DNA of 64,000 nt, from assembly GCA_001244265.2 (NCBI GenBank), contig CDLV01000015.1, positions 558,001 to 622,000 on the forward strand. The letters run 5' to 3'. Origin of the DNA: Microbotryum violaceum (lineage: Eukaryota). Under the pieces are notes generated by a model. That model was not told the origin of the DNA and did no database searches. It saw only the letters and a list, made by a program, of their open reading frames with translations. The first letter of the stretch is position 1, and each line of letters opens with the position of its first letter. Shown here one piece after another: positions 2,251 through 35,000 of this stretch. The translations under genes were made by a program, and so were the position numbers.

Positions 2251-3455
2251 TCACTGCCACGCTCGCATCGTCTCGATTGAAGGCGACCATTCGTGCCAGA
2301 GGGCGCGACCTTGCTCCAGCATGGCCGGATGAGGGTTTATAGGCTTCCCGTGGACATCGATGTAGAGGACCCCGTCGTTGGATCTGGTTTCTTGCAGCCA
2401 TTTCGAAAGGGGCGGATCCTCGAGTGCTTGGTCGGCCTCGGCGGTAACAAGAGAGGGGATCGCCGAGCTGATACATTTGCCACCTGGGGAAAAAGCGTAC
2501 GCCGGTGAGCGCTGATGGGTCCCATCCTTTTTCGAGCTTGCGCGCATGGGCATGGGTCTGCAGACTTGCCTTGTTCATCCGTACTGACGAAGGGAAACCA
2601 CCACAAAACCCATCTCAGAAAGAACCTCGTCCACGCCGAACTTTCCCTGTTCAAGCCCGAAGTGGGGACGAACCCAGGTGAGATGGCGACGACGTCGACG
2701 TCGCGGGTCTTGAGCGTCGATTTCCAGTAGTGTGCGTTCGCCATTTGGGTGAACTTGGTCGATCGGTAACGTTCCATCGAGAGTGTCGAGGGGGACTTGA
2801 GGATCGTGGGGAGGGACGCCACGGAAGAGGCGGGAACCTTGGTGTGGAGGCCCGAAGAGGTGACGATGATGCGAGGATGGGGAACCGAGCTCGTGGGTTT
2901 GAGCAGTGGGGAGACGAGATGCAGTAGCATGTGCTGAGCTAGGGGCGAGTTTCAAGTTGGCGAGAGATCGACAGGGGTTAGCATGATGAGCTATGCCTGG
3001 CCAGCAGAGCCGTTCCGCAACCGACCGAATGTATTGACAATCGCTTCTTTGCACCATCCACCCGAGAGTGCCTCAAACTTGGCGGTGTAGACGCCGGCAT
3101 TGAGAAGGATGCACTGGATGCCCCCTTGGTGCCGATCCGGCGCGTCGGTTCGTGCTCGTGAAGATTCTGGTGTAGATTCCGCTCCACTCCCCTCTACAAG
3201 CAGCTTGACTTGATCACTGAAGGTTCTCACACTCTCGAACGACTCGAGATCGAGGTGTAGGACGTGTGGCTTTGGAATCTGAGAAGGCACGATGGTTGCC
3301 AACCTGGCTTGGGTCGCCGCGACGTCGCGAGCCCCGATGATGAGTCGCCAGCTTGGGGATGCAGGAGAGGTGGTAGAAGGGACATGGCTGTACAAGTGTC
3401 GAAGAGCTTGAAGACCGAGACCGGACGAGCAACCGGTGCACAAGAGGGTCGGCAT
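2251..3455 (-). CDS. Short-chain dehydrogenase/reductase, multi-exon
   Basis: TGCSSGLG Rossmann motif, LNAG, VTSSGLH and YRSTK (YxxxK) across ORFs 2991-3617, 2337-2930 and 2251-2553. Confidence 0.85.
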
Positions 3456-4019
3456 CGTAGTGTCTGCGGGCAAGGAAGGAAGGCTTTCCCGGATAGCGAG
3501 CGGGTTGGTCAAGTGGGGTACAAGTGGGGGAACGGCGCAGCTGGAAAGCGCGCGCAGTGGAATTAACTTGCGGTCGACATTTCCCGTGGTCTCGGCGGCA
3601 TTATTGCTTTGGGACACGTGTGCTTTGCGACAATGATCATTAAAAACACAGGTCTTGGGAGGGCGCTGGCTCAGGTCCGCCTGCAGACTTGGGCATTTGA
3701 TCCCGTTTTCGATCGGCCGGCCCGGTCAACCAATATATCCGGGAGCTCCAGCAGCGGCAGGGTAAAGGCGGATAATGTCGATAATTTCTAAACAAATTTG
3801 GGGATTGCACCGTATCTTGCCACCCTTTTTGTGGGAGAGTTTACCCAAAGTCATGGGTTTCCGGAGGCGGGAGCGCTGTGCACTCGCTGTGCCACTGCTT
3901 CAGTGCCCGACTGGAGTGTCGTCGCGCTCATAGACCCGGGACGGCCCCCTTTTATCTCATCTCTCATCTCTCATCTCTTATCTCTCATCCACTCGGCCCC
4001 CCACCAACCCCCCACAGCC

Positions 4020-5841
4020 ATGGCCAGCTCCAACAGTGCGCTCAAGATCTTTTCGGGCAAGTGCCAACCCTTCGCCTTGCTCCAGAGAAGGAGGAACGCG
4101 CTACTGACCCTGACCGCCGCGAACGGACGTCGCACAGGCACGTCGCACCCGGAACTGGCGCAACTCATCTGCCGTCGCCTTGGACTGCCGCTCGGCAACT
4201 CAAGCATCGTCACCTTGCCCTCGGGAGAGCTTTCGTACGTGGGAGCTCATCTCGCGCTAAACTCGGACCTTGTTCGTTTTGTACTGATCGCTGACTTTTG
4301 GCACTCCTCCCTGTCTCGCGCCGCGCCTTTGCACGTGATGGTCTCTCGGTGAACCGTCGACATTGCGCTTCGTGACACAGCGTCACCTTCCACGAGTCCG
4401 TTCGTGAAGCCGACGTCTACATCGTCGCCACTGCTTCCTCCGATGAGACCGGCACCAATGGTGCCTTGATGGAGTCAGTCCCCCACCCTCGTTCGCGGTC
4501 ATTGTCATCGTCGTCGTCGTCTTCGCCGTCTTGCCCCTGGGCCACACGGACATCTTCCGAAACCACGACGAGCTTGAACTTATCGTGTTTTTTTTTTGTA
4601 ATCTCACAGACTCTGCATCATGGCCCACACCCTTCGGATAGCCTCGGCGCGAAGGATCACCGCCGTTGTGTGAGTTTGACCCGCTAAACCCCCCGGCTTC
4701 GGAGAGATTCGGCTCTCGTTCGTCGTGGCTAGGGGATACACCACGTGGTCACGGAAATCCCCTGTCGAGTCCCCGACGTCGCATATATTGGGTGCTCATC
4801 ATTGCTTCGTGTCCCTTTTCTGGTGTTCGCTTTCCGCCCAGACAGTCCTCACTTCCCTTACGCTCGCCAGGACAAAAAGGACAAGTCCCGAGCTCCGATC
4901 ACGGCCAAGCTCGTCGCCAACATGCTCGTGCGCGGAGCCGGTATCGATCACGTCATCGTGAGTGGTGATATCACCTTCTTTCGTCTTAAAAACATCCTGA
5001 CGACTCGTTCTGCGATACTGTGGTCCCCTCGGCACTTGCTCGAGCAGACGATGGACCTGCACGCCAGTCAGATCCAAGGCTTCTTTGACATTCCCGTCGA
5101 CAAGTGAGTACGGTCCGACGATCTCACAATGGCTCAAGGCTATAGTCGAGTGACTGAGCCTCCGCCCTCCTGTTTCCCTGTGCAGTGTGAGCTTGCCAGT
5201 CGAGACCTCGGCGAAGAATGAAACAGCCGTCCCCCGCCAATCCTGCACTGAACCCTGCCTACCCTTTTTCCCCATCTTCCCCACTTTCGCAGCTCTACGC
5301 CGAACCGACGATGTTGCAATACCTCCGCGAGACAATGGGCCAAGAGATCCGCAACGCCGTGATCGTCTCCCCCGACGCCGGTGGCGCCAAGCGTGCGTCG
5401 TCCATGGCCGCCGCGCTCGACCTCGACTTTGCGCTGTTCCACAAGGAACGCAAAAAGGCGAACGAGATCGCGCGCATGGTGCTCGTCGGCAACGTCGAGG
5501 GTAAGACCGCGATCCTGATCGACGACATGGCCGACACGTGCGGTACGCTCGCGCTCGCGGCCAAGCATTTGCTCTCGGGTGGGGCCAAGACCGTGCTCGC
5601 TTTGGTCACGCACGGAATCCTGTCCGGTCCGGCGTTGAAGGTGCTCGGGGAGAGCCAGATCGAGAGGCTGATCGTGACCAACTCGATCCCGCAACGGGCG
5701 CACCGCGAAGGGTGTGCGAAGTTGCGCGAGATCGATGTCAGTCACGTCCTGGCCGAGGCGGTGAGGAGGTCCCACTTCGGCGAGAGTGTCAGCGCGCTCT
5801 TCCACGTCGTACCGTTTACGCCGGTCAGTCTGGACTCGTAA
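4020..5841 (+). CDS. PRS: Ribose-phosphate pyrophosphokinase
   Basis: [77 protein letters not shown]; many introns. Confidence 0.96.
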
Positions 5842-10784: not shown

Positions 10785-10980
10785 TAAGAATCGCAGTTTT
10801 TCGTTCAAAGTAGTCATGACTCGGGCTGCTCTCGCGCTGCTCTCGGGCTCCGGGGCTGTAGTCTGCGCACCGAAGCGAGCTACGGTAAATGTGAGAAAAA
10901 AAAAGTTGTACAGCTCAGCCGTTGACTTCGGTACATGTGTACTGGTCTCATAGGATCGCTGTCTCCGCGAAGGGAGTGCC

Positions 10981-11270
10981 TCTCGCGAGCGGTTTGAGGT
11001 AACCTCGTCGACCGCTATCTACTTTTTCGTAGGCGAAACAGGAGGCACAGGAATTGGGGGGTAGTGTGATGAACATCTTTGACCAAAATCAAGCCTCCCT
11101 GCGGCGATCTTCAAGCCCAAAAAAACCGAAACCAAGAAGACACGTTTCTTCATGTAGGCACAGTGGCCTGCTCATCACCCATCTGTGGGTCGTCGTTGCT
11201 TTCCTCCTTTAGCTCTTTTTGTCGCCGCCCCAGTCAACCAAAAAGTTTGCAATCTGCGAGCCTCATATGT
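10981..11270 (+). repeat. Degenerate 3'-end fragments of LINE family B (10981-11088) then family A (~11175-11265)
   Basis: 10981-11088 aligns by eye with the B tail at ~31958-32065 (gcggtttg...ggaattggggg...tgatgaaca). 11175-11265 aligns with the A tail (cgtcgttgcttt..cctcctttagctctttttgt..ttgcaat). Confidence 0.8.
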
Positions 11271-12774: not shown

Positions 12775-12862
12775 GCCGAAATAGCTCAGTTGGGAGAGCA
12801 TACGCCTGAAGTATTCAGGTTCATACAGCGTAGGGTCCCTGGTTCGAGCCCGGGTTTCGGCA
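12775..12862 (+). tRNA. tRNA-Phe(GAA) with ~15-nt intron
   Basis: GCCGAAA/TTTCGGC acceptor stem, TAGCTCAGTTGG A-box, TACGC-CT-GAA..GCGTA anticodon arm, GGTTCGAGCCC T-loop, downstream T-run. Confidence 0.95.
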
Positions 12863-17710: not shown

Positions 17711-18061
17711 TACGTCATAATGACCAAGAAACCAATCATATACCATCGCCAACAATGCCATTTTCTGTACTTGCCGCTCTCAGCCTCCGATATCTCAGAT
17801 TGTAAGGCGCCGCTCCAACGACCCCGAGCCAACCTCAGCGGCCCCAAGCTTGACCTCGCGCGCGGCGCCGCAGCGCCGCTTGACCTTAGTCCTTCTGGCA
17901 GTGTTTCTTCGCCTGCGAACTACATCGTTTAATCCTTTCAGTTTGGACTCGAACTCAGTGAGGCTCGAGTGCGATCTCGTGCCTTTCACCGAGCTACTTG
18001 CCAACCCTTGCCAACTCAAACCGATCAGATCAAGGCCCAGTCAAATTACAAGAGTCCAAAT

Positions 18062-19267
18062 CTACGGCTCTGAAATGATCGATTCGATCCACGCATTGTA
18101 CTCGTCGACAATCTGCGACGGGAGGGCGTGTCCTCCGCCCTTGACCTCCTTGAAATGAGATCCCGGGATCGCGGCATGCAGATCCTTGCCCCTCTGGAAG
18201 TCGACCAACATGTCCTGATCACCGTGGATGATGTAGACCTTGTTGATGGTCTTGCCGATCGTGTTTAGTCGCTCCTCCGAGACGTGGTGGTTGAAGACGG
18301 CCACCATCTGCCCGATCCGCCCTGCGACCGTCTGCCGTTTCGTTATGGCAATCCGCTGGATGAAATTCTCGGAGTGGATCTCGCGCCGCGTCTTGCCTGT
18401 CTTTTCGTCGATCGAGTCTAGGTACTCTTCAGGAAAGAGGACAGAACACACCAGACCGACGGCTTGTGACACGTCTTTGAAGAGACCAAACGAAAGCCGC
18501 GCAAACATGCTGACAACGGGCAACTTGGGCAGGTCAAAGGCCGTGCCGGACTTGGTCGAGGTCAGGATGAGCGAGTTGATGCGTTGGGGGATGAGCGTGG
18601 CCTGGATTGATGTCTTAAAAGTACGATCAGCATCGAGGTAGGCACTCCGAATTCAGCCCTACAACTGACCAATTCCAACGCCGTCATGCCGCCCATCGAC
18701 ACACCTACGACATTGAGCGATTTCTCCTCGGTCCATTCGAGATACTCGAGCAGCTCGAGCGTGTCCTGGGCCATTTCTGACGTCTTGTACAGCCTTCTCG
18801 GGGCGTCCGAAGACCCGACGCCACGGTTATCAAAGACGAGAACCTGTGTGGGCTCAGAGAAACGAAGAGCTCGATAAAGTCCGAGGGGTGAAGTCCGGGG
18901 CAGAACTCGCCTGAACGCCTTTGGCGCGACCAAAGAAAGCGACCTGGGCTTGCCATGCAAATGAAGAGTTGTTGAGACCCATGATAAAGAGGAGGCGTTT
19001 CGATTCGGGGGAAGGGTCGCCATGGATTTCTATGAGACCCGCGGTACCGCGTGAAATTGGGTCAATCGAGGATCAAGTGGTATTAGCAAATGAGATCGAT
19101 CCATGCACCCGCCAGCAGACCCAGATACCAGTCCACTTACCATAGTAGAGCTTGTGACGAGCTGGATCGCGCGACGACTTGGTGCAGACGGTGCAGAACC
19201 CCTTACGAAGCGTGGTCGCCGGATCAAACACCGTCGCCGGGTACTCAACATCGGGTACGACCGCCAT
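18062..19267 (-). CDS. Alpha/beta hydrolase
   Basis: VFDNRGVGSS, GVSMGG nucleophile elbow, IIHGDQD, GGGHAL; several introns. Confidence 0.9.
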
Positions 19268-19635
19268 GCGAGCTTAGTGGGTGCTTTGGTAGGGGTTTTG
19301 GATGAGAAGAGCCGGTTCGGGTGACCTGCGGGTCTCGAGGCCTCGATACAGGGGACGTCGGTGAGGGGAGGAAGGAAGCGAGTGATGACGCACTCGGTCT
19401 CGGGGACTTCGACTTCGGCGATCCAGGCTAATGCCCAGCGCCGGCGCCTCGCTCTCGACTAGCTCGCGTGGTTCCGAGTCGACTTCCGCGTGGGTGCAAA
19501 AGAAGAAGAAAAGACAAGAAAAAGGGCGAGTAATGCAAACCTCCTGGCCATCAGAGATATCAGAGCTGCGAGGACTCGATGTCACAGAACGCTGGGGACA
19601 TAACAAATAAAGGCTGGGCCGGCAAGAAAAAAGAT

Positions 19636-19720
19636 AGGTCCCAGCCGGAATCGAACCGGCCTTTCTCGGACATCCTGAAGCAATCAAAACCGAGTGTACT
19701 AGCCGATATACGATGGGACC
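19636..19720 (-). tRNA. tRNA-Gln(TTG) with ~13-nt intron
   Basis: GGTCCCA/TGGGACC acceptor stem, CTCGG-TT-TTG..CCGAG anticodon arm, GGTTCGATTCC, downstream T6 terminator. Confidence 0.93.
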
Positions 19721-19773
19721 GGATAAGGCGATGCCAAAATATCCCAAATTGCGTAATATAAAATAACCAACAC

Positions 19774-19783
19774 ATCACGTGAT
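19774..19783. promoter_or_regulatory. ATCACGTGAT palindrome (E-box/CDEI-like) at the tRNA-array junction
   Basis: Perfect 10-bp palindrome 54-63 bp upstream of tRNA-Gln(TTG); equivalent motif at the second tRNA-Gln. Confidence 0.55.
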
Positions 19784-19789
19784 CCGTCA

Positions 19790-22700
19790 GGGAATCTCAA
19801 TGATTGTCCGGATATATCGGTCGACCGAGTGGCCATCACCGATCGCGCTTGGACTCCTGTATCGCACTGGCAGACCTTGCTGTCAAAGATCGCATTCAAC
19901 CCACTCGACACGATCCGACAACTCCATCCCATCACCCCGGCATTCACTCGCCCTCACTACCTTGGTAGGGGGGACAAACGAGAAATCTGCTCGTGGTCGC
20001 GGATCGATTATATTCTTGTCCAGCGCAGTTGGGCAAACCGGTTGTTGAGCGCTTCCACACTCTTCGATGCGCCCTGCTCGGACCACAGACCCGTAGTTGC
20101 GACTTTCGCATTGCCTACATCGAACGCTGCTGATGCCGAACCACCCCCTGCTCTTCCCACCACGAGTGAATTCATTTCCAGGCTAAACCCAACGGTCTTC
20201 AACGATCAAGACTTTGTCGATTCGATTCCCGGGGTCGTCGACGAGGTCTATCGGAGACTCGAGGGGACCGCTCCACTCGGTGACGTCTATGACGCCGCTT
20301 TGCGGGCGGTCGCAGCCGCTGGCCACGCACGATACCGCTCGACTCGTGCCGACATGCGCCGACTGCGGGCCGAGAACCAATCCGTCATGGAGGCGTTGGA
20401 GGCACACGGTGAGCATATGAATGAGGCCGAGCGCGATGCGTATGCTCTCGCCAAGTCGCAGTTGGATCAGTTGGCGGTAAAGGAGGCTCAGTGGCTGCGC
20501 ATTCGTGCGCATGTGCCGTCAGTCGACTCGAGGGAAGGTCAATCGGCAAGCATTCGCACGCGTCTCAACCGCCGGAGTCGCCAGACGAGCATCGTCTCGC
20601 TGGAGGATGTGGATGGCACCGAGACCGTTGACATGCAGGAGTCGCTGGGTAGTGCTTCACGGCACGCACAGTCGCTCTTCACGCCGGACCCAGCTCGTGG
20701 CGACCCGACGAACGCACGTCGGTCCCTGCTCGACCCTATTCGCGCAGCGAAATGCTACGATGACGACCGCTCGGACCCTACGTTCGGTCGTCGGCTGCCC
20801 CTTCAAGCCAGAGTGGCGCTTGACGAGCCCTTCAACCTTTCCGAGGTCGAAGCGGCGTTGAAGAAGACGGATTCAGGGCGATCACCGGGGCCTTCGGGCA
20901 TTCCGTATGAGCTTTTCAAGGCGCTGCCGACCTACTTCGCTCCCAAGCTGTTGGACTTGTTCAACTCGATTTGGGAGGGCGGCAAAATGACGGCGTCCTT
21001 GGCAGAGGGGCTGGTGCGGCTCTTTCCCAAGAATAAACCGGGGGCCAATCTGAAATCACTGGGGGCATACCGACCGATCACACTGCGCGAGACAACCTAC
21101 AAGGTCCTCAGCAAGGTCTTGGTGGCGCGACTCAATGGGGTGCTCGGCGAGCTTTTGCCGCCGGCGCAACACGGGTTCATGCCATCAAGACGTTCAGCGG
21201 ACGCGGGAAGTCATCTCACTCTCCTTCTCGAAAAAATCCGATCACTCGGTACTGATGTTTTCCCAGAGGGCGCCCTCTTGTCCTTGGATCAGCAGAGCGC
21301 GTACGATCGGGTCGATCACGCATGGATCTTCGACGTCTTCGAGGCCTTTGGCTTTGGTGAGCGTTTCATTTCCCTGCTGCGCGCTCTGTACGATCCCGAG
21401 ACTCTGGGGGTGCGCTACCTCATCAATGGGTTCCCCACGGAGTTGGTGCGGTTGCTGTGTGGTCTCGGTCAGGGGGATCCTCTCTCGTGCCCGGTTTGGA
21501 ACATCACGTTCCAGCCTTTCCTCGACGCCCTCGTTCGGCGCGGGATCGCGCTCGACCTGCAGAAGGTGTGGCCAGGGGGCCGCGTGCGCAGCTTACGCAT
21601 CTGGCGTTTGCCGACGATGCTGTGGTGGTGGTGGAGTCACCGGCGGCATTGTCGAAGCTGGAAACGCTGTCGCAGACGTGGTACGAGGCAACCAACGGGA
21701 AGACCAACACGGACAAGACGCTGGTGCTACCACTCGGACCGAACTGGCTTCGGGACGAGACTGCGCAGGCGCTGCCATCGGTGCAGGAGGGGGAGAGCTT
21801 CAAGTGGTGCGGCTATGCCTTCTTTCGCCATGGTGACTCGAAACTGTTTTGGACCCATGTTCTTGACAGGATCAAGGCCAAGACCCGCGCCGCTGGAGAC
21901 CGGACACTTTCGCCGAGTGGGAAGGTCTTCTATGCCAACGCTCACATCATCTCGACGGTCCTCCACGTGCTGTCGTTCGACATACCGCCTCAATGGTTCA
22001 TTCAGGCGGCGGAGACGGCACTGACGGACTTTGTCTGGGGAGGGCCGCGGCGAAACACCGTCGCTCGCGAATTCGTGTTCCAGGCTCGGGAGGACGGTGG
22101 CTTGGGCTTGATTTCGATCGGCGACATCGTTCATTCGGTGGCGCTTCGATTTTGGGATGCTGTGGCGGGCTCGAACGAGGCGATCTGGGCGCCCCTAGCT
22201 CGCGAGAGCTGGAGGTCCCTCGTCGCTGCGACCCGCGATTTCAGTCCGTGGGGGTTCTTCAGCAGCACGGCTCGGGTCGAGAAGCTGTATCGCGACTCGA
22301 CGCGCTGGGGGACAGTCGTTGCAGCGGCCAGGGTCACAGTTCCAACCATCAAGTCCGAACTCCTTACGCTGCCCGAATTGCTCTCGCTTCCGCCTCGCCT
22401 CCCTTCACTCTATGCTGAAGGTGCCAAGCACGCATATGACGATGCGGACGCAGTGGCGAAATTTGCGCAGATCGCGGACCTGTACTGGAGGGACGAAGGA
22501 AAGGGCTGGGCTCTGGTTGGTCATCGACGCGGGTTCTGGCAGCACTCTAAGGAACCCGCCCTACAGCACGAGCACGTGTGGTCGCGCGTGGGTCAGTTGC
22601 TCAAGGCGAAAGCCTTGCTGACCAAGACCGCGTTGCGACCTGCTCGGATACCTCTCAAGGAGGCTCCCCGTCCTCGGTGCTTCAAATTCTTTGGGCTCAC

Positions 22701-23387
22701 CCGACCTTTTACGATTCGCAAGCTTCGTCGGCTTGTGAACGTGGTTCGGTTCCCGGGAAGGACGGTCAGGACCGAGCTCTGCCTGGTGAGCAACCTCAGG
22801 AGCCTCGGGTCAAGCGTTTCCCCGAGGGGACTTCTCAGAGCGGGAGGCAGCGCTTCTGGAGTTGGCTTCATGACCGGTTCGCGTCTGCTGCGGAGCAGGA
22901 CACCCACTGGCGGCTTATGTACGATGTGACACCGACGCGCAAGAAGCAACATGTCCAGGGCCATGCTTCTTCGCCGTCGTGTCTGTTCTGTGGCAACGAT
23001 GCAGCGGTCATCGAGACGGTGTCGCACTACTTCTTCGGGTGCGCGTACTCGGCCAGCTACTGGAGCGGGGTGCTGCGCATTCTGTTCGACAAGCTCGGCA
23101 TCGAGGATACCGACGTCGATCCGTCGACGTTCACCCAGGAGCAGCTGACTATGGGGCTCCCCCTTTTACGGGGTCGTGGGAGAACGACTTCGAAGTGGAT
23201 GTGGGTTCGGTTGGCTTGTGCGATTGGGTTCCAGCGGTTGCACTTGCTGCGCTGGCACATCCACCAGCGGTTCGAGAAGGACCGCGTCGTGGTCCCTCCC
23301 TCGATCCCCAGTGCACTTAGAGCGTTCAAGCGTGATTTTCTCTCTCGGGCGGGTTTTGTTCCTGGGGCTCGAGATTGGGAGGTGTGA
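19790..23387 (+). pseudogene. LINE A ORF2 (APE-RT-zinc knuckle), N-terminally truncated, two frameshifts (~21580, ~22755)
   Basis: ORFs 19829-22024, 21457-22929 and 22578-23387 tile a single ORF2. Confidence 0.88.
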
Positions 23388-23407
23388 TGACCGAGTTAAG
23401 TCTTTCC

Positions 23408-23752
23408 TATTGTAAAAATGTTCTCATGTGGTAACTGATGAAGACCACGACTCAGTCCAATGGAACGGGACGAGAACAGAGTGAGTAGGATTCCAGAGAA
23501 TGCATACCTGATGAAGACCACGACTCAGTCCAATGGAACGGGACGAGAACAGAGTGGCCAAAGGCTAAGGGACAAACTCCAGAAGGACTAGGAAGGGATG
23601 ATAAGCGGAGATAATAAAGAGCTAATAGTGACTAAAAAAGGGTAAGACAAATGAGGTGCTGAAGGGCTTCATGAAGTCGCTAGAGGCTCAAGATGAAGTA
23701 CCATAACAGGTACTATACGTAGACTGAAGGACGATGCAACCATATAATGACA
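23408..23752 (-). repeat. 3' LTR (TG...TA)
   Basis: Direct repeat of 24847-25191; internal 49-bp repeat at 23435-23483 and 23508-23556. Confidence 0.93.
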
Positions 23753-24188
23753 CTCCCCCGGTTGGAAGGTCCGAAGATGGAGTAAACGGTACATGGTCGA
23801 AGACTTTTGACGAGATCGGGTAAAGCCGAAAGCGACGGGACTTGTTCGGGTAAAAGGGGCCGAAGACGGGTGGCGGTATGACGGACAATGACGCCATAAA
23901 ACGGGATGGAGAACTGATCTGAAAGGGACCAGTATAACCAAATGCGGGGACGGAAGCCAACAAACCAGAGTACGCTGGTGGACTAGTTGGCACTACTTGG
24001 ACTTGGAGCGAAGGGCTGGTGTACGAAGCCATCATGTTCGCAGACGGGGACGGTGATTGGCAAGAATACCAATACGACTTGACGGTTGATCGGGCTGATG
24101 TAGAGACACCGATACGAAACTTGGACGGGTGATCGGCTTGAAGAAGACCGATACGACGAGGACTTGTGAGGATGAGGACTTGTGACGA

Positions 24189-24842
24189 TTAAAGCGAGTG
24201 ACAGAAAGCGCTGTTAACAAACATAGCTTTGGCTGCTTCCTCCTTGACTGCTTGCGCAAAACCAGGCAGTGGAACACCCATAGTGGAGATTTCCTCAACG
24301 GCGTTTAGGAAGTTGGAAACAAACGACTTGAAATTGGACGTGTTGGAACGCGTGAACGTGCTCCGGAAGATGACGGGGATGAGCTGGATGAAGCGAGCTT
24401 CAGCGCCTTTGGTGTGGTGAATCCGTAGGGCGGTCCACATCTCATGGGCTGAAACACAATTCTTGATAATCTTCATTTGAGAACCGGTAATTGTGTTGTT
24501 GATCAACTCAGCAGCTTTGTCATCCTTGGCTTCAAGATCAAGGGTGTAGATGTCGACGAGTCCTTGCTGAGCAGAGGTGAGCGCGCGAGGCGCGGCGGGT
24601 GAAATCTTTGCGCCTGCGGAGGTTGCTTGCGAAGTGGACGGGGTGACAAGGGCGGCCTCATAGATCGCTAGCAGGGCAGGAATGCCCACAGTTGTGACAT
24701 CCAAACATTTCTTGCGACGAAGATGGTTGCTGATCCAGACGGACCATTCTTCGTACGAGTTCGGATTGTCGCTAAGGTGGATCCTAGAGATGAGGGCGGA
24801 AGACGAAGGCTCGAGAGCAGCTTGGTAGCTCGTTGAGCTCAT
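24189..24842 (-). CDS. Copia-type Gag (UBN2-like), 217 aa
   Basis: NSYEEWSVWISNHLRRK..D.KAAELINNTI..QM.IIKNCVSAHEMWTALRIHH; the ATG lies within the PBS. Confidence 0.8.
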   Translation of the reverse strand: MSSTSYQAALEPSSSALISRIHLSDNPNSYEEWSVWISNHLRRKKCLDVTTVGIPALLAIYEAALVTPSTSQATSAGAKISPAAPRALTSAQQGLVDIYTLDLEAKDDKAAELINNTITGSQMKIIKNCVSAHEMWTALRIHHTKGAEARFIQLIPVIFRSTFTRSNTSNFKSFVSNFLNAVEEISTMGVPLPGFAQAVKEEAAKAMFVNSAFCHSL

Positions 24843-24846
24843 AACC

Positions 24847-25512
<666 letters not shown>

Positions 25513-26107
25513 TGATGGATCTCGCCGAATGGAATGGTCGTTACGGCGTGGATCGGGAAGAAGGCTCGTTCGTTTTATTGGATCGTTTTTTTGCCCGACT
25601 TCCGACGGCTCAACAGCCAGCACTCGAGACTCAGCCAAGGAGGGCCATCGGGCGTTGTCGGGGTGACGAGTAGCTGGCGCTTGGCTGCGGCCTGTTAGTC
25701 ATTGGGGACCTCTATCCCTGGCTTCGACCCCTTTCTTGGTCCCTCGGGTGTGTCCCCCCTCCTCCCCCTCCTTTCCCCTTGTTTTAGTATTTTACTTTCT
25801 CGGTGTTCCCGTTTGTGACTTTCTGTATATTCTCTTCCTTCTTTCTCTAGGCGCTCTTGCCTGGTTTCGAGTATCTTCGCTCCCGCGCTTGGGACGTGAA
25901 GCGGCAGCAGTACTCACCCCCGTTGGAGTCCGCGTTAGGTGCTCGGCGGGCTTTGATCTGCGCAGCGCTCTTTGCGCGCAGGGGTTTGATTTTCACCCAG
26001 CTGCTTGTCGTCGTTGCTTTATTACCTCTTTTAGCTCTTTTTGTAGCGATTCTAGCCAACCCGAAGGATCGTAATTTATGAGCCCAGTTAAACAAAAAAA
26101 AAAAAAA

Positions 26108-26882
26108 CGCTCTTTGCGTCGGAGGCTTTGTGAAGTTTTTCCCTCTTCTTTCCCCCCTTTTTCCCTTCCCTTCCTCTTCTCGTTCCTGTTGCTCGGTTGT
26201 TGACTACGCTTCAGCCACTTCTCCTTTTACACCTAAGCCGTGTGTTGGATTCCGTTGAATGGTTCGTTCGTTCGCGTTGGTCAAGATCTACGGCATGGCT
26301 CGGGAAGGAAGGTCGCTCGTTTCTGGTCAATATCCTCGCGTCAACGCGAGGCTCGTTTCGTTGTACTGGATCGCTTTTCTCTCGGCCCCGACGGCTCAAC
26401 AGCCAGCACTCGAGATTCAGCCAAGGGAGGACATCAGGCGCTGTCGGGGTGACGAGTAGCTGGGGCTTGGCTGCGGCCTGTTAGTCCCTGGGGACCTCTA
26501 CCTCCGGCTTCGACCCCTCCCTTGGCCCCTCGGGTGTGTTCCCCTCCTCTCTGTCACAGTATTCCTGGTTCTCCTTATCCCCAGTCGTGACTTTCTCTAT
26601 ATTCTCCCCCTTCTTTCTCTAGGCGCCCTTGCCTTATTTTCGAGTATCTTCGCTCCCCCTCTTGGGACGTGAAGCGGCAGCAGTACTCACCGCCCGTTGG
26701 AGTCCGCGTTAGGTGCTCGGCGGGTTTTGATCTGCGCAGCGCTCTTTGCGCGCAGGGGTTTGACTTTCACCCAACTGCTTGCCGTCGTTGCTTTATAACC
26801 TCCTTTAGCTCTTTTTGTAGCGGTCCCAGCCAACCCGAAGGATAGCAATTTATGAGCCCCAGTCAAAAACAAAACAAAAAAA
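26108..26882 (+). repeat. LINE family A 3'-UTR fragment with A-rich tail
   Basis: Colinear with ~25378-26107; ends tatgagccccagtc-aaaaacaaaacaaaaaaa. Confidence 0.9.
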
Positions 26883-27083
26883 CCCGCTTTCATTCGTCTC
26901 CTGGGGGGAGCAACCGCTTGGCTGGGGCACTTGAATCCCAAGTATCGGATTGGTGGACACCGGCCCGTTTCTCGCATCTTGCGGGCGGTTTGTGTTATTA
27001 TCGTCAACTTCCATCTAGTTTTTCCGTAGGCCAATCAGGGGGAACAGGAATTGGGGGCAATACGATAAATATATCTACAAAAA
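26883..27083 (+). repeat. LINE family B 3'-end fragment
   Basis: Near-identical to ~31870-32065; followed by a degenerate A-like piece to ~27290. Confidence 0.9.
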
Positions 27084-27572
27084 TCCTCGTGATTGCCCTG
27101 CTAAGTCTGCCCTTCCTCTCTCTCTTCCTGCCTGATGGCTCAGATACAAAAAATTGGGCCACACCCCCTTCCTCCTTTTCCTGCTTTTGGATATAAGCTG
27201 ATTGCGTTGGATCGGCAAGCAGGATCGCGCGCTTGGGTCAAGATTCTTGCGACACGGCGAGCCTGGTTCGGAATTTTTGTTTGGAGCGTTCGCTCGGCAC
27301 ACACTAAAGACTCGAAAGCAACCTGTCGGCAAACCGTTAAACGCTGCAGCAAGCGCGGGCGGCTATGCACGTCGAGAGCAGGTGAGTGTGCGGACGCCGA
27401 TGGTCGGAACGAGCAACTCACCGAGGAAAACGCTGCGCAAGGGGGCCGAAGCTATTCACCTGAACAGACCAAAAAAAGCACAAAAGAGCGTAGGCCAGAA
27501 GGTGACGAACGAAACGACACCGCATTGAGATCTGCGGAAAAAATGAAGGAAGAAAAAATTAGTTGGTAGACA

Positions 27573-27644
27573 AGGTCCCAGCCGGAGTCGAACCGGCCTC
27601 CCCCGGATCAGAACCGGATGTACTAGCCGATATACTATGGGACC
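27573..27644 (-). tRNA. tRNA-Gln(CTG), intronless
   Basis: 72-nt cloverleaf GGTCCCA..TCCGG-TT-CTG-AT-CCGGG..GGTTCGACTCC..TGGGACC T; T6 about 14 bp downstream. Confidence 0.95.
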
Positions 27645-27689
27645 GCTGGAGGGCGCGGTGCGTTAAAACATAATAATATCAAACGCAAA

Positions 27690-27699
27690 GTCACGTGAC
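27690..27699. promoter_or_regulatory. GTCACGTGAC palindrome at the tRNA-array junction
   Basis: Perfect 10-bp palindrome 46-55 bp upstream of tRNA-Gln(CTG). Confidence 0.55.
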
Positions 27700-27703
27700 A
27701 GCA

Positions 27704-27789
27704 ACCCAACTGCTTGCCGTCGTTGCTTTATAACCTCCTTTAGCTCTTTTTGTAGCGGTCCCAGCCAACCCGAAGGAAAAAAAAAAAAA
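27704..27789 (+). repeat. Short LINE A 3' fragment with poly(A)
   Basis: Matches ~26770-26841 and ~34600-34672, followed directly by an A-run. Confidence 0.9.
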
Positions 27790-27790
27790 C

Positions 27791-30700
27791 GGCGGTGATC
27801 TCAACGACTGCCCGCGCCGCCGCCCAGAAGTCGATCGGCGGAACCAAAGTCGGCGCGGCCACCACTGGCCAATCCTGATCGGCAAGCTCGACTCGGCCTA
27901 CACGGACTGCATCCGCTACAAACACCCCATCACCCCATCCTTCACTCGACCTAATCCCAATCGCAAGCGACCCAACTCCTTCTCCCGGCTTGACTACTTT
28001 CTCCTGCAACGGACACACCAAAAAAGACTCGATCAGGCCTCGACGATCTACGACTATCCCAAGGAGCTTTCCGATCACCGACCGGTCTTGATTGTGCTGG
28101 CTCTCTCAGACGATCCTGATGCGACCCTCCCACAGCTCAGCCTACCTACCACATCAAACCAACTACATCGAATCAACACCACAACCTTTAAGACGGTGGA
28201 ATTCCAGCGGATGATGGAAGGATGGTTGGAAGGGGCAAGCGGGGAGGAACCGGTGGGGAAGCTCGAGGTCATTCTGAAGGCGTGCAGGGATAGGGGTGGG
28301 GAGATGGCGAGGAGGCTGCATCGGGAGCGGACGGAACGGATGGAGTATTTGGTGGGGAGGGTGCAGGATCTGGAGGCGATACCGGAATGGGGGGAGGCGG
28401 AAACGGCAGAATGGACAAGGACGTCCGAGGAACTCAAGCGGGCGGTCGAGGAGCGCGCGCGCCTACTCCGGATCCGAGCCCACGTACCCGAGATCGCCTC
28501 CGAGGAACGACTGTCGCGGCCGGTCCACGCCAAGCTCGCGGCGCGGAACTCGGACTCCAAGATCACAGCACTGCGCTTGAGCAACGGAGAGCTAACGCAT
28601 GACATTGATGTCGCTCTTGACCACACGCAGGCGCATTTCCAGCGCCTCTACCACATCGAGCCTCGTGACCCGGACCGCGTCGACCGACTTCGGGACGAAT
28701 TCCTCGCGCCGATCAGGGCGGCGCGGACTTGCGACGACCCGCGCTCGGATCCTCTCTTTCTGCGCCGACTCTCGGAATCGCAGATCGACTTACTCCAGCG
28801 ACCAATCACCGAGGACGAGGTCGTGGCCGCGATCGGGACGACGCACCCGGGGCGATCGCCGGGACCGTCGGGCGTGCCCTACGAACTCTACCAGACCGCA
28901 CCCAAGGCGTGGGCCAAGGTGCTGACCAAGGCCTACAACGCGATGATAGAGCGAGGCTCACTCTCTCCCAAGCAGTGCCAAGGACTCGTGCGCCTCATCT
29001 TCAAGCGACACAAGAAGAATGCCGATCGCGCCGAACTTTCGTCGTACCGGCCGATCACCCTGCGCGAGTGCGATTACAAGATCTTTACCAAGTTCTATGT
29101 CGCCCGTTTGAACCAGATTCTACCCGATCTCCTCCCGCCGCAGCAGCACGGATTCGTCAAGGACCGCCGATCGGCTGACGCTGCACTACACCTTCGTCTC
29201 CTGATCGAGGAAGTTGGCGCGCGCAGGACCGAGTTCCCCGCGGCCGCACTCTTATCTCTTGACCAATCGTCCGCCTACGACCTCGTCGAGCATGACTGGA
29301 TCTTTGCCATCTTTGACGCTCTGGGCGCTCCTGCCACCTTTCTTCGCGTGCTGAGGATGCTCTACTCGGGTGACTCGACCTCGGCCCGCTACATCATCAA
29401 TGGGTTCTTGACGGCGCCGGTACGACTGACGTGTGGGCTCGGCCAAGGGGACCCGGCGTCGTCGTCGGTCTGGGACATCGTGTTTCAGCCGTTTCTGGAT
29501 GCTCTACACCGTCGAAACATCGCGCTGAATCTCTCCATACCTGCACTTCATCCGTACCCACAGAGCCGCGCCATTACATCGCTTGCTTTTGCCGATGACG
29601 TTGTCGTCGCCGTCGCGGGCTTGGGGTCACTCAACTTGCTCGATGACCTGGCGCTCGACTGGAGGCATGCAACGAATGGCCGGCTCAACACGGACAAGAC
29701 GGTCGTCCTACCGATCGGACGCCGCTGGGACCCGGGGCAACGCCCGCTCGTCGTCAAGGCCGCAGGCGAGTCGCTCGAGTGGATCGGCCTCCCCTTCGAC
29801 CGAGCGGCGACACCGAACTCGCCTACGCGAATCTCATCGAACGCCTCGAGGCGACGCTGGAAGGGGTTCAGCATCGCTGGCTCACACACCACACCCGTGC
29901 CTTTTACGTCAATCGGTACGCCATCCCCAAGATCCTGCACTTCCTTGCAGCTGACATCCCGCCGCCCGAAGTCGTCAAGAAGCTCGATGACATGCTCGTC
30001 GATTTCGTCCGTGGGGGCAAGGGCAGGACCAGCTACGGCAGAGATATCGTGTTCACAGCCAAGCTCAAGGGGGACTCGGGGTGATCAGGATGCAGGACGT
30101 CGTGGACGCGGTTGCGGCACGGATCTGGGACGTTCTTCTCGGCGGTTCGGGCGCGATCTGGCAAGGACTTGCGCGCGCGGCACTCCAGCGAGCTCAGTCC
30201 GACCTCGACCTGGCCACCGATCTCTGGCCACATCCATCCACTCCCATCCCCAGCGACCTCCATCCCCGATGGCGAGCAGCATTGGGGGTTCCGAAACAGC
30301 AAGACGCGCAGGTCAACCCGAGGACCTTGACCACCGCGAACTCGCTCGCGCTTCCCACCTTGCTCGGCAGCCTCCACACCCCCATCAGAGGGAGACAGAC
30401 CATCGACGCGGTTCATATACCTGACTACCTTCGTCTCCAGGGCTACCCGAAGGTGGCGGATCTCTATCGGCGCGAGTTGTATGCGGGTGAGGGGTTTCAC
30501 CTTTGGACGCCACCTGCGGATGTGCTCGGTGACAACAGCGAGTACGATCGACGCGGGCTCCCGCAGCGACTGGCAATCGCGGCCTGGTACCGGTTCACTG
30601 TCGATCGACACAAGAACGCGCCCTTGGCGGTGGCAGTGGCGGCAGGACGGCTCAACGTGCCTCCCCGGATCGGCACCAGCGCACCGCTCGAGGCGATTCT

Positions 30701-32071
30701 CCCCAAGCCCGTGGCCCGCTTCTCAATGGAGCAGCGCCTTCCGGACCGGGTGCTTCCACAGCAGGCGAGCCAGTACAAGCTGTTGAACATGGCTCGACCG
30801 TACACCATCCGTCGCATCCGCCGGGTCCTGAACGCGAAGGCCTTTACCAACACGCTCGGGCTCAAGGGACCACTGCAGCCGGGCGATCTCAGGAGCTTCT
30901 GGAAGGCGGTCAACTCGAAGGCACTGACGGCGAGGGAGAGGGAAGTTTGGTTCAAGCTGATTCTCCGCTTCACCCCGACGCGCAAGCTGCAACACCAACA
31001 GAATCACGACACTTCTCCCGCGTGCCTCGTCTGCGAAGCGCCGGTGGACGACACCGACCACTACTTTTTCGGCTGCGTTAACTCGCGGAATGTCTGGATC
31101 GCGGCAAGGGGCGTGCTCTGCGACGCACTCGGGTGCGACACGATTGAGGACGCCCAGTACACGACACTGCAACGGCTCTTTGGCCTCCCCAAGCTCAAGG
31201 CCAAGCTCAGCGAACAGGAAGGGGCGGGCAGGACGATCGAGATGTTCACGGGGATGGTTTTGGAAATGATCAGCAGTGGGAGATGGGGGATGCAGAAGCA
31301 CGGGACGAGGATGGAAAGCGTGGAGAGGAGGAGAGTGGTACTGGAGGAGAGGATGAAGTTGAGGGCGGGAGGAGCAGGGGGCGGGCGAGGGCAGTAGAGG
31401 CTGGGTTCGATTTCCCCCCCACCACACCCCACACACACACACCATCACGCTTCATCTTCCAACAAAACACTGTATACTAAATATCTTGCTTTCATCTTTC
31501 ATCTATTACAGGTCTGCCTTCGTTGCTCATGGACCGGCTCGCGATTTGAGATTGACTCGACGGTGACTCGCGCTCTTTGGCTTCGGGGTTCTGAGTCAAG
31601 GGAGGGATCAGCAGACACAGGCAGAAAGTCGGCTTTGAGGGGCCAGGGACTGCTGAGGTGGAGGTTTTGAGGGGCCTCCACCGCGTCTTGTTGTGACCGA
31701 GCATAGACTTGGGACTTCGCGGGTCAGGGTAGCTGCGCAGTCGCTCTCTTGTCTTTGTCTCGACCGAGTTGGGAAGTGACGGCGGGGTGGGTCTCTTGTC
31801 GTTAGTCAATTATTTTATTACTCTTTCTCTTTCTCTCTCTCTCTTCTTCTCTCTCTCATCTCCTCTCTCTCATTCGTCTCCTGGGGGGAGCAACCGCTTG
31901 GCTGGGGCACTTGAATCCCAAGTATCGGATTGGTGGACACCGGCCCGTTTCTCGCATCTTGCGGGCGGTTTGTGTTATCATCGTCGACTCCCATCTAGTT
32001 TTTCCGTAGGCCAATCAGGTGGAACAGGAATTGGGGGCAATATGATGAACAGTTTCTACCAAAAAAAAAAA
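27791..32071 (+). mobile_element. 5'-truncated L1-like non-LTR retrotransposon, family B
   Basis: Frame open from GGDLNDCP (27791) through [16 protein letters not shown] motifs ([12 protein letters not shown]) and CLVC..DHYFFGC; frameshifts ~29800 and ~30070; stop at 31397; 3' UTR; poly(A) at 32061-32071. Confidence 0.93.
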
Positions 32072-34251
32072 GCGTCTGGAATGTGCTTCTTGGCGGTTCG
32101 GATGCGATCTGGCAGGGACTTGCGCGCGCGGCGATTGTACGAGCCCATCCCACCCCCGACTTTGACTTGGCAACTGATGCGTGGTCTTGCGACTACACTC
32201 CGATCCGAACCGATCTACACCCAAGATGGCAGGCCGTGCTGAAGGTACCATCGACGCACAATGCGCAAGTCAAGCCGAGGACGTTGACGCTCGCGAATCT
32301 TCTCGCCCTTCCGATCAAGTTGCACACCCTTCACTACCTACCGGGAGCACCAGCTGTGTCGCGATCACCCTACGACGTCGACTATGCTGCGTTTGCCATT
32401 TACGCCAAGGTAGCGGACCTGTTCCGACGCGAGCTGTACCCGGGTGGGGGCTTTCATCTCTGGACGCCGCCGACGGATGTGGTCGTCAGCAACAGCGAAT
32501 ACGATCAACGGGGCCGCCCACAACGAGAGCACGTTGTGGCATGGTACCGACATGCGATCAATCGATTAAGGTTCACACAAATAGCTCAACCGGTGGCGGC
32601 AGTACGAATCAACGGGCCTCCCCGAGTCCGCCCCAGATCCGAGGTCCGCCCCACCACGCCGCTCGAGTCGATCCTGCCCCATCCGATCGACCCGCCGCAG
32701 CGCCTTCCGAGACCGGCTCTCCCAGACCAATCAACACAATACAACTTGCTCAGCATGGATCGTCCATACACCATCCGTCGCGTCCGCCGAGTCTTGAATG
32801 CAAAGGCCTTTACCGACACGATCGGTTTCAGGGACTCGCTGCAGCCCGACGATATCAAGGGATTCTGGAAGGGGGTCAACTCGAAGGCATTGACGGCGAG
32901 GGAACGCGAGGTGTGGTTCAAGCTCGTCAGAAACTTCACCCCGACTCGGAGTCTGCAGTTTCATCAAAAGCACGACGACTCGCCCGCGTGCCTCGTCTGT
33001 GGAGCGCCCAAGGACGATCGGAAGCACTACTTCTTCGACTGCGTTGACTCTAGGAACGTTTGGATCGCGGCAAGGGGCGTGCTCTGCGACGCACTGGGGC
33101 TCGACACGATCGAAAACACGCATCACACGGCCGTTCAACACATGTTCGGATTTCCGAAGCTCAAGGCCAGTCTGCGCGATCAAGAAAGAGCGGGGAGGAC
33201 GATCGAAATATTCACCGGGCTGGTCTTGGAGATGATCAGCAGCGGGAGGTGGGGGATGCAGAAGTGGGGGACGAGGATGGAGGGTGTTGGGAGGAGGAGG
33301 ATCATCTTGGAGGAGAGGTTGAAGCTGAGGGCGGGAGGAGCTTGGGGGAGGAGAGGGCAGTAGAGGCTGGGTTCGACTTTTCCCCCATCACCACACACAC
33401 ACACCATATTCTCGTGACATCATTTTCTCCTACTGTACACTAAATAGCTCGCTTTCATCTTTCATTTGTTACAGGTTCAACGTTGCGGAGCATGGACCAT
33501 CTCGCGATTTGGCGTCGACTCGGTGTGGCTCGCGCTCTTCGGCTTCGGGGTTCTGAGTCAAGGGAGGGATCAGCAGACACAGGCAGAAAGTCGGCTTTGA
33601 GGGGCCAGAGACTGCTGAGGTGGAGGTTATGAGGGGCCTCCACCGCGTCTTGTTGTGACCGAGCATAGACTTGGGACTTCTCGGGTCAGGGTAGCTGCGC
33701 AGTCGTTCTCCTGTCTTTGTCTCAACCGAGTTGGGGAGTTGGGAAGTGGGTGCGGGGTGGGCCTCCTGTCTTGGCAGAAAGTCGGCTTTGAGGGGCCAGG
33801 GACTGCCGATGGGGGAGGTTTTGAGGGACCTTCACCGCGTCTTGTTGTGACTGAGCAGAGACTTGGAGCGTCGAGGGTCGTGGTGGTTGCGCAGTCGTGC
33901 TCTTGTCTTCGTCTCGACCGAGTGGGAAGTGGCTGTGGGGTGGGCCTTCTGTCGTTAGTACATTTCTTTTCTTTCTTTTTTTCTCTTCATATCTCTTTCT
34001 CTCTCTCATTAGTCTCTTGGGGGGAGCAACCGCTTGGCTAGGGCATTTGAATCCGAATCTCGGATTGGTGGACTTGGCTCGTTTCTCGCACTTTTGCGGG
34101 CGGTTTGTGTTATCATCGTAGTCTTCCATCTAGTTTTTCCGTAGGCCAAAACAGGGGGAACAGGAACTGAGGGCAATATGATGAACGTTTCTACAAAAAC
34201 AAAAAACAAATCTACCAAAACAAACAAAAACAAAACTATCAAAAAAAAAAA
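32072..34251 (+). mobile_element. More heavily truncated family B variant (C-terminal ORF2 plus 3' UTR)
   Basis: ORF 32083-33363 paralogous to ~30130-31397; 3' UTR has a ~190-bp tandem duplication (33581-33953); A-rich tail. Confidence 0.9.
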
Positions 34252-34704
34252 CCCCCGTCTTCATCAGGCGCTGTCGGGGTGACGAGTAGCTGGGGCTTGG
34301 CTGCGGCCTGTTAGTCCCTGGGGACCTCTACCTCCGGCTTCGACCCCCTCCCTCGGCCCCTCGGGTGTGTTCCCCTCCTCTCTGTCTTAGTATTCCTGGT
34401 TCTCCGTATCCCCAGTTGTGACTTTCTGTATACTCTCCCCCTTCTTTCTCTAGGCGCTCTTGCCTCGTTTTCGAGTATCTTTACTCCCGCTCTTGGGACG
34501 TGAAGCGGCAGCAGTACTCACCGCCCGTTGGAGTCCGCGTTAGGTGCTCGGCGGGTTTTGATCTGCGCAGCGCTCTTTGCGCGCAGGGGTTTGACTTTCA
34601 CCCAACTGCTTGCCGTCGTTGCTTTATAACCTCCTTTAGCTCTTTTTGTAGCGGTCCCAGCCAACCCGAAGGATTGCAATTTATGAGCCCCAGTCAAAAA
34701 AAAA
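34252..34704 (+). repeat. LINE family A 3'-UTR fragment with poly(A)
   Basis: Near-identical to ~26433-26868. Confidence 0.9.
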
Positions 34705-35000
34705 CCCCCGACTTGCAAATTAGCGATGAGTTTCATACAAAAAAAACCCCCCGAGGAAAAAACGAGGTATCATCGCCGACTTCCATCTAGTTTTTCCGCA
34801 GGCCAAAGGGGAAAAAAGAATTAGAGGCGAATCAATGTTTCTAAAACAAGAAATGAATGCTATTGGATTGGCGGACACCGGCCCGTTTCTCGCACGTTAG
34901 CGAGCGGTTTGTTGTCATCGTCGACTTCCATCATCTAGCTCTTTCGTGGGCCAAAGAGAGGGACAGGAGTTGGGGAAAATACGATGAGCAGTTTTTATAG
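34705..35000 (+). repeat. Two or three short, decayed family B 3'-end fragments
   Basis: ttccatctagtttttccgcaggccaa and ggattggcggacaccggcccgtttctcgcac match the B tail with many substitutions. Confidence 0.8.

Follow-up and report, generated by a model that had tools for sequence, protein, structure and literature searches.

Retrotransposons that settle beside tRNA genes are known from several lineages, and in the table of a 2018 review those without long terminal repeats (non-LTR elements) are all dictyostelid: TRE5, TRE3, NLTR-A and NLTR-B (PMC5911963). The same review gives distances to the tRNA gene of 40-54 bp for TRE5 and 39-64 bp for NLTR-B, and describes NLTR-B as an independent invention of TRE5-like behaviour (PMC5911963). 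For TRE5-A, integration is described about 50 bp upstream of the gene, with the element's 5' end turned towards the tRNA 5' end (PMC3159450). In fungi, elements with long terminal repeats (LTR elements) are known to target tRNA genes, namely Ty1-Ty4 and Ty3-like elements. Here, we describe long interspersed nuclear elements (LINEs) that are stacked head to tail upstream of two tRNA-Gln genes in Microbotryum violaceum, within a 64-kb window (the whole stretch of DNA that was analysed; contig CDLV01000015.1, positions 558,001 to 622,000). Microbotryum is an anther-smut fungus and belongs to the basidiomycetes.

LINE stacks upstream of two tRNA-Gln genes

We found that all LINE DNA in the window lies in two large stacks and one small relic (Table 1), and that both large stacks, two of two, begin a short distance upstream of a tRNA-Gln gene. 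In stack 1, homology to a first element family (family A) begins at 19790, which is 70 bp from the 5' end of the first gene (tRNA1). The distance becomes 64 bp when the 6 nucleotides (nt) in front of it, from 19784 at most, are counted as part of the first unit (A-long). In stack 2, the first unit (A-tail3) starts at 27704, 60 bp from the 5' end of the second gene (tRNA2). Every LINE piece between 19784 and about 35000 lies on the plus strand and points its 5' end towards that of the tRNA, both tRNA-Gln genes being on the minus strand. An earlier note on this DNA, made from the sequence alone, had placed the starts of the two arrays at about 19784 and about 27700 and had given every unit this orientation, and both readings were borne out. 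So was the TRE5-like layout that it had claimed, since position and orientation match the description of TRE5-A (PMC3159450). The start positions of the two stacks support a TRE5-like integration preference at tRNA genes, which we regard as likely but unproven and to which we give about an even chance.

Three credible tRNA genes were called in the window with ARAGORN when introns were allowed. Default ARAGORN and Rfam recovered only the tRNA-Phe gene and tRNA2; tRNA1 was missed by both because of its intron. Intron-blind ARAGORN labels the tRNA-Phe gene as Tyr, and a fourth ARAGORN call, with a 1012-nt 'intron', was discarded as spurious. The minus-strand tRNA-Gln genes that the earlier note had read, with 5' ends at 19720 and 27644, are real by ARAGORN, the second also by Rfam, and each retains a B box and a downstream T-run terminator, as read from the sequence. 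They lie 7.9 kb apart on the same strand, are different isoacceptors, carry an intron in one only and align at 76%. Minus the LINEs, the two genes would be about 550 bp apart, resembling an old tandem pair; 489 bp separate the end of stack 1 from the 3' end of tRNA2. In short-read run X20, a 688-nt contig over 26903-27733 shows skips of 59 nt (27363-27421) and 92 nt (27532-27623) whose ends read GT..AG on the minus strand. It looks like a spliced transcript that runs from the LINE tail through tRNA2 in sense, with a 5' splice site within the tRNA.

The two stacks share only their tails in self-BLAST and are otherwise not collinear, and their first units differ (A-long in stack 1, A-tail3 followed by B-long in stack 2). 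Because the order and the families of the units differ, the stacks are not collinear and the tRNA genes are different isoacceptors, the stacks are separate events and not the product of one segmental duplication, an alternative that the earlier note had itself raised. These results support two or more separate insertions, made by different families, at the two tRNA-Gln genes. The earlier note had also raised misassembly, and here the short-read check was confined to tRNA2. Short-read contigs at single-copy depth cover 27037-27622 in run X15, with 0 differences, and 27031-27733 in run X11, with 3 differences. Since the X11 contig, from another organism label, carries the junction between tRNA2 and A-tail3, that junction is not an assembly artefact; it is common to two organism labels. 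No joint skipping a unit, as expected of an empty allele at tRNA2, was found in the short reads over 26108-31850; run X9 has no cover at 27068-27643 and is uninformative on this point.

Families, units and junctions of the stacks

The elements are L1-type LINEs, a class assignment that rests on their domains and on a closer match to human L1 ORF2p than to R2 proteins. RVT_1 and zf-RVT were found by Pfam in long plus-strand frames of the window, and Exo_endo_phos, RVT_1 and zf-RVT in two full-length relatives (P0013 and P0065); the window copies retain only the last third of the APE domain. A profile of ten proteins encoded by the second open reading frame (ORF2) matched human L1 ORF2p at 1.2e-87 over profile positions 3-899, which cover endonuclease and reverse transcriptase (RT), and matched R2 proteins at only 1.4e-32. 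Poly(A) 3' ends and variable 5' truncation are present, as for L1-type elements, and Pfam detected no RNase H in the Microbotryum elements. L1-clade LINEs have been reported for M. violaceum (Hood 2005, as cited in PMC3956500), and the window LINEs are probably these elements; the literature passages searched make no mention of their tRNA association or stacking. A cluster look-up returned only unnamed APE-RT clusters.

Three families contribute to the stacks. Families A and B, at 42% amino acid (aa) identity, are clearly distinct, as the earlier note had it. It had counted two families in all, and one further unit of stack 2 shows 96% aa identity to database protein P0020 versus 63% to family B, and therefore represents a third family, C. 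The comparison set comprised 91 database proteins related to the LINE proteins of the window, which reach up to 99% identity to gene models of M. silenes-dioicae, M. saponariae and M. intermedium.

In stack 1, A-long is a single copy, truncated within the endonuclease domain at the G of a GDLNDCP motif. Its ORF2 remnant extends to about 23384 with two frameshifts and shows 95-97% aa identity to P0057 over residues 142-1346, and its 3' untranslated region (UTR) is interrupted by a nested LTR element. The LTRs of this element are 100% identical over a 347-bp BLAST repeat (23406-23752 and 24845-25191), with LTR edges placed at 23408 and 24847, and the insertion is flanked by a target duplication, TTTCC (23403-23407 and 25192-25196). 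Because the LTR element splits A-long, A-long is older than that insertion; the nested element is no part of the LINE system and is probably the youngest insertion of the region. The next unit, A-tail2, shows 85% identity to the tail of A-long and 96.4% to 34262-34705, and B-tail, which follows, shows 94.5% identity to 31867-32065 and 91% to the tail of L001, a family-B copy on a metagenome contig that is described below. Of the four units first proposed for this array, A-long, the A tail and B-tail stand, and the decayed A unit is doubtful, with marginal matches only. The units labelled 'A-UTR' in the earlier note are 5'-truncated 3'-UTR tails of family A.

Stack 2 opens with A-tail3, in which 74 of 74 nt are identical to 26769-26842 and to 34600-34673. 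This unit is polyadenylated about 27 nt short of the usual family-A end, which suggests an alternative 3' end. B-long, the second unit, is truncated at the GG of GGDLNDCP; its family-B homology starts exactly at 27791, and short-read contigs of full-length family-B copies continue upstream past that point. It shows 95% aa identity to P0013, for the first 700 aa 99% identity to P0006 and P0007, and 91% nt identity to L001 from L001 position 5703. Relative to the contigs of all three other-organism runs, B-long has a 6-nt insertion at 27815; relative to the same three runs and part of the X15 contigs, it is without one base at 29799 and one at 30068. Run X20 shows two alternative antisense skips at 28003-28148 (79 and 146 nt; minus-strand GT..AG) at high depth, which suggests spliced antisense transcripts of the 5' part of B copies. 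The C unit is truncated at residue 1663 of 2091. The earlier list for this array thus holds for its A-tail, B-long, the later A tail and the decayed B-like tails, and its B' unit belongs not to family B but to family C.

Units further from tRNA2 are less similar to other copies, from A-tail3 (74 of 74 nt) through B-long (99% aa) and the C unit (96% aa) to A-tail4 (96% nt) and the last fragments (79-81% nt), a gradient that is confounded by the differences between families. The claim that the most decayed units are distal therefore stands for stack 2 as an outward drop in similarity, subject to that confounding.

Within the stacks, each poly(A) is followed directly by the next 5'-truncated unit on the same strand. 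Seven A-runs of 7-14 nt end units between 26094 and 34746; an eighth, at 27471, closes no unit. No flank-derived duplication of at least 8 nt was found between units, except for a chance match inside the nested LTR element. After six of the seven unit-ending A-runs the sequence reads one to six C and then G (26883, 27790, 34252, 34705 and 34747; also 26108). These letters may have been added without a template, or may mark a preferred nick site; in L001, too, the target side begins with CG.

The starts of A-long and B-long lie 3 nt apart in aligned position, B-long starting one codon earlier, and the elements that share this start region are about 7 kb long. A 5'-truncation hotspot at GDLNDCP found no support: of the 66 database proteins that contain the motif, not one begins at it, and tandem gene models are truncated at differing points (951, 1219, 1233 and 1880). 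Nor do the missing 5' halves lie beyond the tRNA genes, where a six-frame reading of 18000-19640 and 26880-27575 gave no endonuclease N-terminus.

Comparable arrangements occur elsewhere in the genus. Mixed-family head-to-tail LINE pairs were found in seven of eight long gene models examined from other Microbotryum species, one of which spans a poly-lysine stretch that corresponds to translated poly(A), and further junctions of poly(A) to a truncated tail lie at contig ends of four short-read runs. Stacks of mixed families on one strand are thus common across the genus.

Outside 19.6-35 kb, the window is ordinary gene-rich DNA, in which Pfam identifies bZIP, POP1 (POPLD), alpha/beta hydrolase, Hobbit/FMP27 (a long gene), SRAP and aspartyl protease.

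Table 1. Positions in the 64-kb window of the tRNA genes, their upstream flanks, the LINE units and the nested LTR element
Feature	Positions	Strand	Basis or remark
Decayed B-tail plus A-tail mini-stack	10975-11270	+	78.6% identity to B tail; A-tail likeness read from sequence
tRNA-Phe(GAA), 15-nt intron	12775-12862	+	ARAGORN with introns
tRNA1, tRNA-Gln(TTG; anticodon UUG), 13-nt intron	19636-19720	-	ARAGORN with introns; T-run downstream
Flank U1: TATA-like AT-rich stretch, TCACGTGA at 19775-19782, then 7 nt to LINE	19721-19789
A-long, family A	19790-26107	+	RVT_1, zf-RVT (Pfam); poly(A) 26094-26107
Nested copia-type gag-only mini LTR element, 1.8 kb	23408-25191	-	Self-BLAST; Retrotran_gag_2 1.2e-9
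A-tail2, family A, 3' UTR only, 5'-truncated	26108-26882	+	Adjoins A-long poly(A)
B-tail, last ~200 bp of family B, CCCG in front	26883-27083	+	BLAST
Possible very decayed family-A 3' UTR fragment	27105-27244	+	Marginal collinear matches, E = 6e-4 to 0.07
tRNA2, tRNA-Gln(CTG; anticodon CUG)	27573-27644	-	ARAGORN; Rfam tRNA 53.4 bits
Flank U2: AT-rich stretch, TCACGTGA at 27691-27698, then 5 nt to LINE	27645-27703
A-tail3, last 73 nt of family-A 3' UTR as kept, plus A13	27704-27789	+	Self-BLAST
B-long, family B	27791-32071	+	Pfam; poly(A) 32061-32071
C unit, family C, last 429 aa and 3' UTR	32072-34251	+	Poly(A) seen
A-tail4, 5'-truncated family-A tail, CCCCCGTCTT in front	34252-34704	+	96.4% identity to 26432-26875
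Three short diverged B/C-type tail fragments	34705-34746, 34747-34860, 34861-~35000	+	79-81% identity to B tails

Proposed targeted integration and its alternatives

The arrangement would be accounted for if families A, B and C had a preferred integration site where the RNA polymerase III (Pol III) initiation complex ends on its upstream side, about 60-70 bp from the mature tRNA 5' end, and always entered it the same way round, 5' end towards the tRNA. Further integrations at the border nearest the tRNA would then stack 5'-truncated copies head to tail and displace older ones outward. The cue would be the Pol III machinery itself (TFIIIB/TFIIIC), perhaps read by the orphan 803-aa product of the first open reading frame (ORF1), as in TRE5-A. 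We infer that such a preference would extend genome-wide and that the order of units in a stack would be their order of insertion. An insertion history pushed outward in this way is plausible: the falling similarity along stack 2 favours an order in which the near units are young and the far ones old, and the order stays unproven because template jumping, or insertion into poly(A) tails, would produce a like arrangement.

Several observations weigh against such a preference. Only two loci carry it, and their tRNA-Gln genes are neighbours with related upstream flanks. Two tRNA-Gln sites are filled, one of the three tRNA genes is empty, and both the relic stack and L001 lie off tRNA genes. The empty gene, tRNA-Phe, has no LINE upstream, where the final stretch of a long open reading frame (probably a gene) fills the space; tRNA-Phe starts about 115 bp past the stop codon read as the end of that gene. 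The stacks start 5-7 bp past a palindrome, TCACGTGA, whose distance to them is more constant than that of the tRNA genes. In addition, the units are joined without flank-derived duplications, and staggered cuts at a distance set by a fixed ruler would produce one. The lack of duplications does fit the zero-length target change in L001 and the target deletions of truncated TRE5-A inserts.

Copies away from tRNA genes also exist. A family-B copy close to full length, L001, sits within a copia gag on a metagenome contig of 12.4 kb on which neither ARAGORN nor Rfam (at E<=1) found a tRNA. The LINE shows 89-91% nt identity to family B and has lost about 0.9 kb internally. Its 5' end lies near 2783, ORF1 (803 aa) occupies 2872-5283, ORF2 runs from 5286, and the poly(A) end is at 9022; it comes near to the full-length copies with ORF1 that the earlier note had called for. 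LINE and split copia gag lie on opposite strands, the reading frame shows no target bases gained or lost, and a target duplication is not visible. The 803-aa ORF1 protein gave no match in Pfam or in PDB at E<=1, and an L1-like ORF1 (coiled coil, RRM and C-terminal domain; Transposase_22) was not found. ORF2 of L001 begins 2 nt past the ORF1 stop, and many Microbotryum gene models fuse both into proteins of about 2000 aa. The mini-stack at 10975-11270 likewise has no tRNA beside it by ARAGORN and Rfam; the nearest, the plus-strand tRNA-Phe, is 1.5 kb off and wrong-facing. Finally, 6 of the 91 database proteins combine LINE with copia or gypsy (LTR-retrotransposon) domains. Because copies exist away from tRNA genes, a preference for tRNA genes cannot be absolute. 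Of the tRNA gene-targeted LINE system put forward in the earlier note, the TRE5-like position and orientation thus hold, and L001, the mini-stack and the six fusions argue against strict targeting.

L001 came from a metagenome scan with the alignment of ten ORF2 proteins, in which 80 loci were kept. It was the only close relative among them; the other 79 are distant LINEs and uninformative for this clade, and the four of these that hold a tRNA gene have none near the LINE 5' end. A scan of viral contigs found no relative of the elements.

Targeting might be dispensed with altogether. A first copy could have landed by chance, or survived because the spacer upstream of a tRNA gene is harmless and open in a compact genome, and a stack could then have grown on it without any dedicated mechanism. 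We modelled chance placement post hoc, treating the LINE DNA of the window as three clusters beside three tRNA genes and asking for a start 40-80 bp upstream in head-to-head orientation. The chance that at least two of the three clusters are so placed is 2.8e-6 for the whole window and 1.8e-5 for an assumed 25 kb of non-coding DNA.

Under this same explanation the stacks would have grown as new copies entered resident ones at the poly(A) tail or 5' border, or as the RT jumped between LINE RNAs within a single event. Every junction, with poly(A) followed by a 5'-truncated unit and no flank duplication, is what this would leave, and A-tail3 and B-long could be the product of a single template jump. 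Like junctions at other loci of the genus (the contig joints and the seven of eight long gene models) and the copies off tRNA genes (L001 and 10975-11270) point the same way. However, growth at poly(A) leaves unexplained why each stack begins 60-70 bp upstream of its tRNA gene and why the two share an orientation. If growth were by poly(A) tails alone, the unit nearest the tRNA would be the founder and the oldest; in these stacks the near units appear youngest, and divergence is greatest in the far ones. The one datable target, that of L001, is not A-rich on the priming side. We consider this explanation without dedicated targeting, landing and growth together, unlikely.

A further alternative turns on TCACGTGA, which we take to be a perfect bHLH/Cbf1-type site (an E-box). 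The palindrome, or a protein bound to it, would mark the place of cleavage, and the association with tRNA genes would be secondary, because the paralogous tRNA-Gln genes share the motif upstream. A motif search found it exactly twice in 64 kb, each time at a stack boundary and 5-7 bp before the stack start, at 55-62 bp from tRNA1 and 47-54 bp from tRNA2. With 5 and 7 nt to the LINE, it keeps a tighter spacing than the LINE does to the tRNA gene (60 versus 64-70 bp). The flanks 19721-19782 and 27645-27698 have TGCGT, an AT-rich run and the motif in common. Yet TCACGTGA may just belong to a conserved tRNA-Gln upstream region, and a palindrome alone cannot set orientation. The 5' junction of L001 is without the motif, the sole TCACGTGA in L001 (9759-9766) has no adjoining LINE, and outside the stacks there are 13 CACGTG sites, all without a LINE. 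We rate a sequence cue of this kind as somewhat less probable than an origin without dedicated targeting. An artefact, whether one segmental duplication or a misassembled region, is very improbable, even though the two tRNA-Gln genes lie 7.9 kb apart on one strand with similar flanks, and repeats invite assembly errors: the stacks lack collinear similarity beyond shared tails, their first units differ, the isoacceptors differ, with an intron in one, and independent single-copy-depth contigs (X15 and X11) cover the tRNA2 region.

Comparison with known retrotransposon systems

Going beyond a simple preference for tRNA genes, we tentatively propose that Microbotryum LINEs independently evolved Pol III-guided, oriented integration about 60 bp upstream of tRNA genes, that three families share it and leave time-ordered stacks, and that TCACGTGA is maybe a cleavage landmark; we hold this fuller account to be possible, its chances falling a little short of even. 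No tRNA-associated non-LTR element from Microbotryum or other fungi appeared in the literature searched, which included passages of the M. lychnidis-dioicae genome paper and lacked supplements and many subscription papers. If the proposal is true, the Microbotryum LINEs would form the first fungal non-LTR system of this kind and another convergent case of 'safe-haven' targeting in a compact genome, and the stacks would be ordered records of family activity. The genus has many sequenced sister species, so that at a given tRNA gene older insertions could be compared directly with newer ones. Were the palindrome the cue, it would represent a new kind of LINE tether; were the pattern to fail genome-wide, the locus would be an ordinary nest of LINE fragments.

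Head-to-tail LINE arrays are known from Zepp in Chlorella and from HeT-A/TART at Drosophila telomeres, and Zorro3 in Candida inserts at poly(A) tracts. In these systems, as in Microbotryum, 5'-truncated copies are joined to a preceding poly(A) in one orientation. They differ in where the copies lie: at chromosome ends or A-tracts instead of at a set distance from tRNA genes.

Ty1 and Ty3 resemble the Microbotryum LINEs as fungal retrotransposons found near Pol III genes (PMC5911963). They differ, in the same review's description, as integrase-based LTR elements, with Ty3 inserting at the Pol III start site and Ty1 anywhere within about 1 kb upstream (PMC5911963). NLTR-B of Polysphondylium pallidum comes closer, being described as a non-LTR element that lies 39-64 bp upstream of tRNA genes. 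It has an RNase H and groups apart from the TREs, whereas RNase H was not detected in the Microbotryum elements.

The closest likeness is to TRE5 of Dictyostelium discoideum, of which TRE5-A is also known as DRE. TRE5 (PMC3159450, PMC5006619, PMC5911963) and the Microbotryum elements are both L1-type, their ORF2 encoding APE, RT and a zinc finger and their ORF1 product being without relatives; the ORF1 proteins of the TREs are described as orphans (PMC5006619). Both TRE5-A and the Microbotryum elements are frequently truncated at the 5' end, and TRE5-A shows target deletions with truncated inserts (PMC3159450). Unlike TRE5, which is described as strictly tRNA-associated, the Microbotryum elements also have copies off tRNA genes; their host is a basidiomycete, their distance is 60-70 bp as against 40-54 bp, and their units stack directly without visible target duplications. 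The likeness of the Microbotryum elements to the TREs described here is one of behaviour and domain plan.

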